Assembly: GCF_003018115.1 (NCBI RefSeq)
Contig: NZ_CP027457.1
Length of the DNA: 64,000 nucleotides
Strand: one strand, 5' to 3'
Source of the DNA: Escherichia coli
GTDB taxonomy: Bacteria; Pseudomonadota; Gammaproteobacteria; Enterobacterales; Enterobacteriaceae
Position numbers and translations under genes: made by a program. The notes under the pieces are model-generated. The model was not told the origin of the DNA. It searched no databases and worked only from the letters and a program-made list of their open reading frames with translations. Below, piece by piece: positions 50,255 to 51,568 of this stretch; the first letter of the stretch is position 1; the number at the start of each line of letters is the position of its first letter.

Positions 50255-51490
50255 TTTATAGTCCTTACTTTATAAAACTCACAGGAAGAGGAAATTACGT
50301 AAATACGGAATGTACAGAAACGCCGTACCACGGTATTAATAAAAGAGATAACCAGCAGCACAGACAACCTGATAAAACTATTTCGTATTACCTCATTACA
50401 GTAATAGGGTAATTATTCAGAATACAGTAAGACTCTCTTAAACTGAGGACCAGAACGAATTACAATAAAAAACACACCTCATATAATTGAGTTTAAGAAA
50501 GCACCATTCAATTACTTACAGGAAATAATCTGATCTTCACAAAAGTCAGCATTGAATAGCCACAGGCAACATCGCTATTAGTATTGTCGTACCATTAAGT
50601 AAAAACAGCGACTCTGCAGAGAGCAGCCTACAGATATTTAATCAGTAGTATAAAAGAATAATGACATACAGACCATACGCTACACACCATAAGAAGATTA
50701 TTTCATACAAAAAAGATAATATTTACCCATAAACTGTAACGGAGCTATAACGTACGAACTAAAGACAATATACTCTAATAGTGTGCTGGTACGTAACTAG
50801 TGTTAAATACAAACCAGACATACATTCAGTGGATTAACTTTCTCAATATTACGCTATGAGTGTAGTAACATAATTTACACATAACTAAACCCCATACACC
50901 ACCACACTGTAGCATATGGGGATAGACGCATTACGCACATACAGAATACTCAGCATAAAGAGGAGTGACATTACGATAAAAAGAGGTAAGTTATACCACA
51001 GATACCACCACACCCATTAATAATACTAATTAACCTTAATTATTCATGGTATATGAAACCATATGTAGTTCTCTGGGAACTAACTAACCCAACAAGAAAA
51101 ATAATCGCTATATAAAAACTTCAGTTAATACTCATTTGTTTTGTTGACTCAGCATATACTAAGTGACCAGTAATCAGGATAATCACACTTACATAACCTG
51201 TAAAAATGGATAAGAAGTATAATCTACTAACAGAATTCACCAGACAAGAGCTTACACCGAATTACAAATTATGTATTAATATCAAAACTGGCATATTTTA
51301 CAGATGCAATGAACATGCAATCCATCAGTTTAATGGAGGCAGTATGCACATCTATCCATGAATGGGATAGCACCAGGAGCACGAAATAATTAGATGCGGA
51401 TCACAAAAACATACCATTTTAATTGAAAAACAAAATAAACAAACAAATCAAAGTGTTACATAATTTTCTTTTGCCAGACATAGATAATAC

Positions 51491-51529
51491 CCCTGCTAAT
51501 TTTGCTAATGGTTAGCAAAATTAGCAGGG
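51491..51529. repeat. perfect 18-bp inverted repeat with 3-nt spacer (CCCTGCTAATTTTGCTAA tgg TTAGCAAAATTAGCAGGG)
   Basis: Read directly; about 40 nt beyond the stop of the 620-aa minus-strand ORF; not followed by a T-tract on either strand. Confidence 0.9.
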
Positions 51530-51568
51530 TATATAAAGATTATTGACCCAAAACACACTCAGATGAAT

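Follow-up and report, generated by a model that had tools for sequence, protein, structure and literature searches.

What does an integrative island keep in a long segment in which no gene can be recognised? In an Escherichia coli chromosomal island, the Gp2/YagK-like gene (49661-50254, minus strand) and the gene for a 620-aa protein (51569-53431, minus strand) are separated by a gap of 1,314 bp (50255-51568). The gap was analysed within a window of 64 kb (the whole stretch of DNA under study, 64,000 nucleotides) and compared with related islands, complete genomes and metagenomes. The features of the region are as follows.

49661..50254, minus strand: Gp2/YagK-YfjJ-like HUH protein, presumed partner of the 24-nt box
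50255..50560, minus strand: conserved proximal leader, or upstream region, of the Gp2-like gene
50561..51017, minus strand: fast-evolving filler, T-rich on the sense strand, between the box and the proximal leader
51018..51041, minus strand: 24-nt box, first conserved element of the Gp2-like gene module
51042..51490, minus strand: distal spacer travelling with the 620-aa gene, poorly conserved, without a conserved ORF
51491..51529, no strand assigned: perfect palindrome with 18-nt arms
51569..53431, minus strand: 620-aa all-alpha, regulator-like protein
53487-53792, plus strand: alpA (Pfam E 1.7e-17)
53764-55293, plus strand: DUF3987 helicase (Pfam E 7.1e-64)

Composition and modular structure of the gap

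The gap is 67% A+T (plus strand: A 40.8, T 25.8, C 18.9, G 14.5%), and its GC content in sliding windows is 0.32-0.35 versus about 0.5 in the flanking core genes. The longest ORF lying wholly within it encodes 51 aa, which confirms the first-pass annotation that no ORF of 60 codons or more occurs over about 1.3 kb. The composition predicts such an absence, however: 39% of 2,000 dinucleotide-preserving shuffles of the gap also had no ORF of at least 60 aa, and in 17% the longest ORF was 51 aa or less. Because shuffles of the same composition are often without an ORF too, the absence carries no signal.

Two properties of the gap had been missed by that annotation. One is a strong strand asymmetry, with T exceeding A by 0.23 and G exceeding C by 0.13 on the sense strand. 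The other is that the gap is made up of two modules with different histories. The left ~800 bp goes with the YagK/YfjJ-like (Gp2) HUH-nuclease gene, and 1582 of 5426 complete E. coli genomes contain it without annotation; the right ~500 bp goes with the 620-aa gene. Between paralogous islands the middle of the gap is 34-63% identical, versus 78% and 96% for the flanking genes. The distal spacer occurs at a coverage of at least 80% in just 69 genomes and is 34-63% identical between paralogues, and its Citrobacter equivalent is only ~170 nt long. The filler is 42-73% identical to that of the paralogous island with many indels, is partly deleted in other islands and carries a variable ACCACCACAC-type repeat; in island L052 a non-homologous spacer of ~980 nt occupies its slot. 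Tandem Repeats Finder reported no repeats in the gap, and a direct-repeat search gave just short two-copy matches and no iteron array other than the palindrome. Most of the gap appears, from its sequence, to be fast-evolving, weakly constrained AT-rich filler with no coding function.

Decayed genes had been offered as one explanation of the gap, which is long for an intergenic region and lies in an island with many pseudogenes elsewhere. No intact gene is found at its position in homologous islands or in more distant relatives. Indels of 1, 6, 12, 18, 25, 32 and 95 nt ignore the reading frame, the middle is near-neutral, and non-homologous ORF-free spacers sit in the same slot elsewhere. The sole 51-aa ORF (51206-51361), tried as a gene, is not conserved; its ATG is lost, and a 95-bp insertion interrupts it in strain CB209. 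BLAST gave no match of the gap in a phage collection and nine records in a plasmid collection, all from E. coli, unannotated at the match and several of them megabase-sized. A remnant of decayed genes is most improbable on this evidence.

H-NS is known to bind AT-rich, horizontally acquired DNA, and the gap, at 67% A+T in a horizontally acquired island, is well above the genome average in A+T. That it is an H-NS-bound, silenced region is a realistic possibility, one compatible with all other readings discussed here, but AT-richness alone accounts neither for the two conserved elements nor for the strand asymmetry.

Genes flanking the gap

In 24 sequences of the Gp2-like protein, the HUH residues H87 and H89 do not vary, nor do Y157 and K160 of the YxxxYxxK motif, whose Y153 shows at least 90% conservation; the C-terminal RGRPR AT-hook is invariant or nearly so. 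Pfam REP_ORF2-G2P and YagK_YfjJ_C match the protein weakly. The best PDB matches of its AF2 model (pLDDT 88.7) are the nuclease domains of parvovirus NS1 and AAV Rep; the resemblance to the HUH-nuclease fold is weak, with E about 1e-3 and TM 0.3-0.38. Taken together, the conserved residues, the weak fold match and the weak Pfam matches suggest that the product of the gene is an HUH endonuclease with one or more catalytic tyrosines. Full-text literature searches found no functional study of YfjJ, YagK or DUF3296.

Long members of the 620-aa protein family have an N-terminal HTH. A DUF3987 protein was shown to be a 5'-3' helicase, of replicative type, from a mobile element (PMC11724360), and int-alpA-prim(DUF3987) is the core of phage satellites, in which prim(DUF3987) is required for replication (PMC10803314). 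PADLOC and NCBIfam gave no match for the flanking proteins. In related islands a neighbouring gene bears a TOTE annotation, which on checking proved unrelated.

A perfect palindrome downstream of the 620-aa gene

The perfect inverted repeat at 51491-51529 is exactly as first described. Its arms (51491-51508 and 51512-51529) are 18 nt each and 100% complementary, with a 3-nt spacer, and it lies 39 nt past the stop codon of the 620-aa gene. The sequence CCC-TGCTA-ATTT-TGCTA-A tgg T-TAGCA-AAAT-TAGCA-GGG follows the general pattern CCC-TGCTA-N4-TGCTA / TAGCA-N4'-TAGCA-GGG, with four TGCTA/TAGCA pentamers, two per arm, at 9-bp spacing. The pentamer pattern was found in no shuffle of the 64-kb window. 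Literature searches with the motif sequences of the palindrome and the box found nothing relevant.

Comparison with homologous islands, set beforehand as a test, favoured the first-pass view: it revealed no intact genes in the gap and a conserved palindrome. Homologues of the 620-aa gene at 72% and at 30% identity still have the palindrome downstream, both of its arms carrying altered N4 blocks; relative to 620-family genes it is invariably found 15-350 nt past the stop codon. In 12 distinct copies 95.2% of cells pair, a value that 0 of 500 shuffles matched; nine pairs and 35 cells had changed on both sides. Between the arms lie 2-6 nt. Of 37 copies, 24 have a central spacer of 4 nt, mostly C..G, and among 28 spacers of even length 8 are completely self-complementary, versus about 6% expected. 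Symmetry that runs through the centre is an argument for a DNA-level site and against an RNA hairpin. Extra pentamers in exact 9-nt phase with the palindrome were observed 10 times versus about 0.14 expected.

The palindrome could instead work in RNA, as a transcription terminator or a hairpin stabilising the 3' end of the 620-aa gene transcript. Its position on the sense strand shortly after the stop codon is consistent with this, as is its location 3' of the 620-family gene in all 28 loci that have one, and often 3' of other genes too. The predicted RNA fold, with an 18-bp stem, is strong (about -27.5 to -42 kcal/mol, z -4.6 to -7.7). Under a lax scan it is classed as terminator-like, its minus-strand tail (GTATTATCTA / GUAUUAUCUA) barely passing. 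The earlier remark that a T-tract is lacking was essentially right: a U-rich tail (at least 6 T in the next 10 nt) is present on just 7 of 106 sides of 53 distinct copies, and the copies in island L009 and in Citrobacter have no U-tract. Unlike generic terminators, the palindrome keeps its pentamers at 30% protein identity. The usual 4-nt, C-G-closed spacer leaves a 2-nt loop, often self-complementary, where an unpaired loop of at least 3 nt would be expected. Third pentamers lie in phase, stems associated with the 620 family contain no G-U pairs, and the same element stands just upstream of alpA in other elements. A comparison of G-T with other mismatches in imperfect palindromes gave no strand-specific signal. 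We consider an RNA-level role distinctly unlikely. The first-pass view of a protein-binding or recombination-type site, not a terminator, is supported by the compensatory changes, the rare U-tail, the central symmetry and the recurrence of the palindrome in alpA-DUF3987 elements.

Gene neighbourhood of the palindrome in metagenomes

A metagenome scan with the TGCTA palindrome pattern gave more than 120 occurrences. Within 15 kb or less of the palindrome, DUF3987 was found at 77 (64%) of the 120 listed loci, alpA at 62, the 620 family at 27 and a Gp2-like domain at 20; MobA/MobL lay directly upstream of the palindrome in 6 loci. Pentamer conservation in these copies is partly by construction, as they were found by the TGCTA pattern, and only the 620-family series is independent. 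The palindrome is a recurrent element of alpA-DUF3987 mobile elements.

Around alpA-DUF3987 the palindrome occupies three fixed positions. In ~20 metagenomic loci it lies 15-130 nt after the stop codon of the DUF3987 helicase. In another ~20 it lies 300-570 nt before DUF3987, just upstream of alpA, where it sometimes follows an Xre-type HTH gene or sits in a divergent intergenic region with DUF932. In the window and all 620-type islands it is 2.1-2.2 kb upstream of the alpA promoter, with the 620-aa gene between. The palindrome flanks in other loci are just 3-4% lower in GC than the locus average. No second iteron set or AT-rich unwinding element was found near the palindromes, and beyond 100 nt pentamer density falls back almost to background. 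An attempt to link the palindrome to the conserved C-terminal domain of DUF3987 did not single out a binder, since the ILQxGPxxLR motif of that domain is also present in YfjI proteins of palindrome-free islands and so does not discriminate.

The position just upstream of alpA, sometimes near an Xre-type HTH gene or DUF932, would suit an operator of alpA-DUF3987 or neighbouring operons, bound by an island regulator such as AlpA, an Xre-type repressor or a member of the 620-aa family. Perfect dyad symmetry is typical of sites for dimeric HTH proteins, and an HTH is what the long 620-family members carry. At this class of loci an operator fits equally as well as an origin. In the 620-type islands, however, the palindrome is remote from the alpA promoter and behind a convergently ending gene, and the ~20 copies just past the helicase stop codon are not where a promoter would be. 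For a simple operator, an array of four to six pentamers at 9-bp spacing is unusually long, and the 620 family is missing from most palindrome loci. As a general account of the palindrome, an operator is rather doubtful.

A conserved 24-nt box upstream of Gp2-like genes

A second conserved element, the box AATTAAGGTTAATTAGTATTATTA (51018-51041, minus strand), has one copy in the 64-kb window at up to 3 mismatches, versus 0 expected. The box had been missed by the first-pass annotation. Where protein search located Gp2-like genes in Erwinia, Citrobacter and Yersinia, the box precedes the gene on its coding strand. Scanning 100,044 species genomes for the box pattern gave 28 matches, 12 of them with a Gp2-like ORF directly downstream; these loci include Gilliamella and Dechloromonas, where the box is identical although the proteins are only ~30% identical. 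Beside Gp2-like genes from either kind of search the box is always single, upstream and in the orientation of the gene. The box thus occurs upstream of Gp2-like genes in gamma- and beta-proteobacteria, and is diverged yet recognisable in other distant Gp2-like members. The flanks of the box are not conserved, and alpA is adjacent at nearly all box loci. A scan of viral contigs with a shortened box pattern gave 34 loci, of which two are fragments of E. coli-type islands and the others look like chance or coding matches; it revealed no inovirus link and no viral contig with both the box and a Gp2-like gene.

The box contains TAGTATTAT or TAATATTAT, which agrees with the CRESS nonanucleotide at 8 of 9 positions and has the same G/A alternation. 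No conserved hairpin presenting a nick site was found at the box.

The same sequence may equally be read as a promoter and regulator site of the Gp2-like (often alpA) operon, the long E. coli spacer being a 5' leader with attenuating hairpins, possibly subject to AlpA-type antitermination. The box ends in a conserved, -10-like TATTAT, and in relatives GRAGT follows 5-6 nt after it, at the distance expected of a start site. In most genera the box is 80-250 nt before the start codon. In the window a terminator-like hairpin (50921..50890, minus strand) lies in the filler ~100 nt downstream of the box, and the sense transcript, being C-poor, would be a poor Rho substrate. AlpA of P. aeruginosa recognises an element located between -35 and -10 and acts by bypassing terminators further downstream (PMC7969949). 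The box resembles that antitermination cassette (PMC7969949, PMC9371919) in having an AlpA-family gene adjacent, in overlapping the spacer and -10 of a putative promoter and, in E. coli, in being followed by a hairpin and a long leader. It differs in that the AlpA element published for that cassette, GGGACG-N5-GGTA, is absent from the box and its flanks, although a different AlpA subfamily could have a different site. In 18 loci there is no conserved -35 hexamer at 16-18 nt and no TG extension, and the scanner called no promoter at the box. The downstream hairpin is lineage-specific; it is not kept in islands L009 or L006 and not conserved beyond the closest islands. A separate promoter-like site lies in the proximal leader, and identity over at least 20 nt at ~30% protein identity exceeds usual promoter conservation. 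A promoter role is quite possible while falling short of probable. Given TATTAT, GRAGT and the adjacent alpA, it is as plausible as a nick site.

A probable leader of the Gp2-like gene

Between island paralogues the proximal leader (50255..50560) keeps 84-92% identity, and its conservation extends to 1582 E. coli genomes. A consensus scanner placed the promoter-like site at 50441..50412 (minus strand). On the same strand, an anti-SD at 50283-50288 pairs with the SD at 50262-50266; predictions for 8 genera give an SD-sequestering hairpin in 7, from differing sequences, and the hairpin is present in the consensus fold of the leader too. The folding predictions make it likely that the Gp2-like gene is preceded by an untranslated leader with a hairpin masking the ribosome site. 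The filler is probably transcribed in the sense direction as part of a long leader.

A structured non-coding RNA had also been suggested. Strand asymmetry, the conserved 300-nt proximal segment and several predicted hairpins are in keeping with one. Rfam 15 (E-value mode, 49000-54000) gave a best score of 22.3 bits versus gathering scores of 39-70, with E at least 0.5. In the consensus fold of the 306-nt proximal leader one of 76 pairs covaries and the covariation term is -0.6, the sequences being too similar to be informative; the remainder of the gap is poorly conserved. The suggestion finds no support in Rfam or in covariation, and a structured RNA is very unlikely.

Discussion

We tentatively propose, at somewhat less than even chances, that the gap is a composite non-coding segment with an origin-like palindrome and an HUH nick-site box. 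The gap would be the non-coding backbone of a satellite-like integrative island (int / DUF3987 helicase / alpA / 620-aa gene / spacer / Gp2-like HUH gene), with two DNA-level recognition sites embedded in filler. The palindrome, from the alpA-DUF3987 module, would most likely be the assembly site of the island replication proteins, i.e. an origin. The box, tied to the Gp2-like HUH gene, would most likely be the sequence that the nuclease binds and nicks, a rolling-circle origin or an oriT-type site, and it may double as promoter or operator of that gene. Anatomy, conservation, gene associations and compensatory changes are shown by the sequences; the proteins binding the two elements, and any role in replication, are what we infer.

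In PICIs, the origin lies just after the primase/helicase gene, and two iteron sets flank an AT-rich melting region (Fillol-Salom et al. 2018, PMC6092414). The palindrome is like a PICI/SaPI origin in consisting of short repeated units in a non-coding segment by a primase/helicase gene, in an element of int-alpA-pri type, and the ~20 metagenomic copies shortly after the helicase stop codon have the PICI origin position. It is unlike one in that its pentamer pairs are inverted and 2-6 nt apart, with no second set nearby and no sharply AT-rich flank. In the window and the other 620-type islands the palindrome is on the other side of alpA, not 3' of the helicase. That the window palindrome is 2.2 kb upstream of alpA and not beside the helicase 3' end counts against an origin.

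Four pentamers (GAGGC) also make up site II of the SV40 origin, and the papillomavirus E1 binding site is a helicase-loading site. The palindrome is comparable in its four inverted pentamers, its central symmetry and its association with a hexameric self-loading helicase, as an analogy of working only. DUF3987 is an unrelated family, the pentamers are spaced 9 bp apart versus 6 bp, and neither an early palindrome nor an AT tract in the flanks was found.

Recognition hairpins of oriT and HUH relaxases, e.g. the RSF1010/R1162 oriT, are inverted repeats. Like them, the palindrome is under selection for perfect self-complementarity and sequence-specific arms, and HUH-type genes are near (Gp2-like and MobA/MobL). 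Unlike them, it has no conserved nick sequence at a fixed distance, and most palindrome loci are without a relaxase in the available DNA.

For the box, the relevant systems are HUH rolling-circle origins: the 30-nt origin of phiX174, the CRESS nonanucleotide TAGTATTAC/TAATATTAC and the f1 intergenic region upstream of gene II. The box is similar as a strictly conserved block of ~24-35 nt in unconserved DNA, immediately upstream of an HUH/two-tyrosine gene. It differs in having no presenting stem-loop, its CRESS resemblance is AT-rich and could be chance, and the Gp2-like gene is in a chromosomal island, not a phage or plasmid.

Islands with int-alpA-DUF3987 and YagK/YfjJ-like genes abound in E. 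coli, O104:H4, O157:H7 and uropathogenic strains among them. These islands carry virulence and defence cargo; their YagK/YfjJ proteins are uncharacterised and their cis-acting sites unannotated. The 39-bp palindrome, the 24-nt box and the candidate partner proteins now provide precise targets, and the palindrome pattern could be used to find alpA-DUF3987 elements in metagenomes, where 64% of the listed matches were in such elements. If both elements are only regulatory, the gain would be better promoter and operator annotation in a widespread island backbone. A bolder reading, which we regard as unlikely, is that the palindrome and the box together make up the cis-acting part of a replication/mobilisation system, not described before, in CP4-57-like and satellite-like islands: a DUF3987 loading site and a YagK/YfjJ nick site. 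If this is true, islands in ~29% of complete E. coli genomes, usually deemed inert or cryptic, would replicate or mobilise as rolling circles after AlpA-triggered excision, and the palindrome class would mark where replication begins in a very broad range of alpA-DUF3987 elements that crosses phyla.

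Genomic setting and composition of the gap

The AT-rich gap (1,314 bp, 50255-51568) lies in the chromosome of E. coli strain 2014C-4135 (100% match), in a genomic island adjoining ycdU.

Gene order around the gap, in + coordinates
minus strand: two zinc-ribbon genes, before the Gp2-like gene
49661-50254, - strand: 'inovirus-type Gp2' YagK/YfjJ-like (Gp2-like) gene
gap, 1,314 bp: between the Gp2-like gene and the 620-aa gene
51569-53431, - strand: 620-aa hypothetical gene
53487-53792, + strand: alpA
53764-55293, + strand: DUF3987 gene
minus strand: tyrosine integrase gene, after the DUF3987 gene

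No tRNA gene was detected by ARAGORN in window 40000-64000, though the integrase at the island end adjoins ycdU. The same island junction in O104:H4 carries an RtT sRNA annotation.

Both the gap and its perfect palindrome (51491-51529) are exactly as the first-pass annotation described them. The + strand of the gap contains 40.8% A, 25.8% T, 18.9% C and 14.5% G. That no ORF reaches 60 codons is uninformative, since the longest ORF was shorter than 60 aa in 39% of 2,000 dinucleotide-preserving shuffles. The strands differ markedly: read in the sense direction of the flanking genes, the gap has an excess of 0.23 for T over A and of 0.13 for G over C. The sense strands of the gap and of the equivalent spacers in compared loci L002-L006, L009 and L052 contain 34-41% T, 25-28% A and about 14.5-19% C, and the short upstream regions of Erwinia, Citrobacter and Yersinia show no such asymmetry. 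In E. coli the spacers are C-poor on the sense strand; a sense transcript, if made, would be a poor Rho substrate and the antisense transcript a better one. One possible reason for the asymmetry is that a long untranslated sense transcript avoids Rho-binding sites. A non-coding RNA had also been proposed here, and the Rfam search recognised no RNA family in the gap. Tandem-repeat, phage and plasmid searches with the gap added nothing.

The gap is a composite of two histories

The left part of the gap, beside the Gp2-like start codon, was found by megablast in 1,582 of 5,426 complete E. coli genomes at 80-94% identity and is never annotated in them, while the entire gap was present in 69 only. 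Most islands have this conserved segment flanked by a yfjI-type DUF3987 gene on one side and the Gp2-like gene on the other, on a single strand throughout. The window, O104:H4 and a few further strains differ in two ways: they have an insertion comprising the 620-aa gene and a ~500-bp tail of its own, and their alpA-DUF3987 pair is inverted.

A paralogous island occupies a second site beside a Clp-family ATPase gene, with a 607-aa gene (72% identical to the 620-aa) and a 1,231-bp gap. When the two paralogues were aligned, identity was ~96% in the Gp2-like gene, ~78% in the 620-aa gene, 84-92% in the 250-300 nt nearest the Gp2-like start, and 34-73%, with many indels, in the other ~1 kb of the gap. 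No gene was found in the gap of any relative compared, a 51-aa ORF is not conserved among them, and indel lengths are independent of reading frame; the suggestion of decayed genes was therefore rejected. Together with the low identity and the empty searches, this argues that the bulk of the gap is weakly constrained filler, with neither the remains of genes nor a recognisable RNA gene in it.

Two smaller variations were seen. In L003 (strain CB209) the distal spacer is interrupted, at the counterpart of about window 51230, by a ~95-bp insertion that contains the direct repeat GATCGATTC(G/A)(A/G)ATGCCA and may be a small mobile repeat. Two copies of a ACCACCACAC-containing unit lie in the window (50886-50907 and 50992-51013); O104:H4 has an additional copy of this type beside the 24-nt box, and copy number differs between strains.

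Conservation of the palindrome

The palindrome has the layout CCC-TGCTA-N4-TGCTA-(spacer)-TAGCA-N4'-TAGCA-GGG and occurs far above chance expectation. That of the 72% paralogue has three base pairs altered on both sides. A Citrobacter locus, reached via its Gp2-like protein and not via the palindrome, encodes a 627-aa homologue of the 620-aa protein (30% identical, E 3e-81) and has the same layout 68 nt after that gene, with yet another N4. In 12 distinct copies beside 620-family genes, 95.2% of cells pair. The N4 columns contain 20 changes, every one of them double, with no unpaired change and no G-U; these values were reached by 0 of 500 shuffles. In homologous islands, where the first-pass annotation had left conservation open, the palindrome is thus kept with compensatory change, and the gap is gene-free.

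A metagenome scan with the pentamer pattern gave at least 120 loci. Complementary N4 blocks were present in 78 of the 121 pattern matches listed. Among the 120 loci listed (at most 15 kb of DNA each), a DUF3987 gene was found in 77, alpA in 62, a 620-family gene in 27 and a Gp2-like domain in 20. Pfam confirmed representative genes, some of which also encode a fused primase domain of RepB type.

Positions of the palindrome
15-130 nt past the DUF3987 stop codon
300-570 nt before DUF3987, immediately upstream of alpA
2.1-2.2 kb before DUF3987 with a 620-family gene between (includes the window)

The metagenomic locus L145 has two TGCTA palindromes (1790-1821 and 2049-2080), 260 nt apart, 3' of a 620-family gene. 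Islands L004-L006, which have no TGCTA palindrome, carry a hairpin with a 9-bp stem, AGTCTCCTC...GAGGAGACT, ~25 nt past the yfjI stop codon. Its loop in L006 is TGCTAC, one pentamer copy, which may be coincidence.

Nature and possible role of the palindrome

Among 53 distinct copies a U-rich tail was seen on just 7 of 106 sides. Most central spacers are 4 nt long and C-G closed, fully self-complementary spacers are five times commoner than expected by chance, and third pentamers were found in exact 9-nt phase. These features speak against an ordinary terminator and point to a dyad-symmetric recognition site at the DNA level, in support of the earlier proposal of a protein-binding site. A canonical terminator (11-bp G+C-rich stem, then TTTATTTTT) lies 3' of the DUF3987 gene at 55365-55400, so the palindrome is not needed as the end of that operon in this island.

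A PriCT-DUF3987 protein has been demonstrated to be a mobile-element 5'-3' helicase (PMC11724360). The phage-satellite core is int-alpA-prim(DUF3987), and satellite replication requires prim (PMC10803314); the origin of PICI satellites, an iteron region, lies directly 3' of the pri-rep gene (PMC6092414). Judged by where it lies and by its repeats, the palindrome is most readily interpreted as a candidate origin or helicase-assembly site of the module. However, PICI origins have an AT-rich gap between iteron sets and a second set, and the palindrome has neither; in the window it is also displaced by the 620-aa gene. An operator is a serious rival to the origin or helicase-assembly reading. A tie to the DUF3987 C-terminal domain fails, since YfjI proteins of palindrome-free islands share this domain.

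The 24-nt box and the Gp2-like gene

The box AATTAAGGTTAATTAGTATTATTA (51018-51041, - strand) is the one invariant block in the poorly conserved middle of the gap. A protein search led to Gp2-like genes in Erwinia (57% identity), Citrobacter (53%) and Yersinia (42%), each with the same box 135-250 nt upstream of its start codon, and nothing else in these upstream regions aligns. Scanning one genome per species (100,044 species) with the box pattern gave 28 matches, 12 of them with a Gp2-like ORF directly downstream on the same strand. Hosts named among the 12 are E. albertii, two Citrobacter, Buttiauxella, Edaphovirga, three Gilliamella, two Dechloromonas and one contig labelled Collinsella; another Gilliamella match is interrupted by the contig end. 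The others are in unrelated, mostly AT-rich genomes, consistent with chance. The Gilliamella and Dechloromonas proteins are 30-33% identical to that of the window, and in further members (35-38% identity) the box is diverged yet recognisable.

TATTAT forms the end of the box, and GRAGT comes 5-6 nt later; the flanks of the box are unconserved, and no conserved -35 was found upstream among the box loci compared. An alpA-family gene adjoins nearly all box/Gp2-like loci. In the box, TAGTATTAT/TAATATTAT resembles the CRESS-virus nonanucleotide, a similarity that may serve as a lead. Across 24 homologues the Gp2-like family retains the HUH motif (H87, H89), the YxxxYxxK motif (Y153, Y157, K160) and a C-terminal RGRPR AT-hook. 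The structural model (pLDDT 88.7) gave weak top matches to parvovirus NS1 and AAV Rep nuclease/origin-binding domains. The protein probably retains single-strand DNA nuclease/ligase activity; the literature search found no functional work on the YagK/YfjJ-like family. Given the conservation pattern, the likely HUH-type partner and the adjacent alpA, the box may be the binding and nick site of this nuclease, the operon promoter/operator, or both, about equally likely.

Box and start codon are separated by 590-1,000 nt in islands of the E. coli lineage (765 nt in the window, ~590 in L006, ~980 in L052, where the spacer is non-homologous) and by 80-250 nt in other genera. The last ~40 nt before the Gp2-like start form a predicted SD-masking hairpin in 7 of 8 genera (the window and compared loci L013, L015, L017, L047, L048, L049 and L052), with an anti-SD of CUUCCU type and a different stem sequence in each. 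In the window, anti-SD 50283-50288 would pair with SD 50262-50266 (- strand). These predicted structures suggest conserved translational repression of the nuclease.

Full-text search on gene names or motif sequences found no description of the palindrome or the box, and we infer their functions solely from where they lie, how symmetric and conserved they are, and which genes accompany them. What makes the finding valuable is that both are unannotated cis-elements whose conservation extends well outside E. coli.
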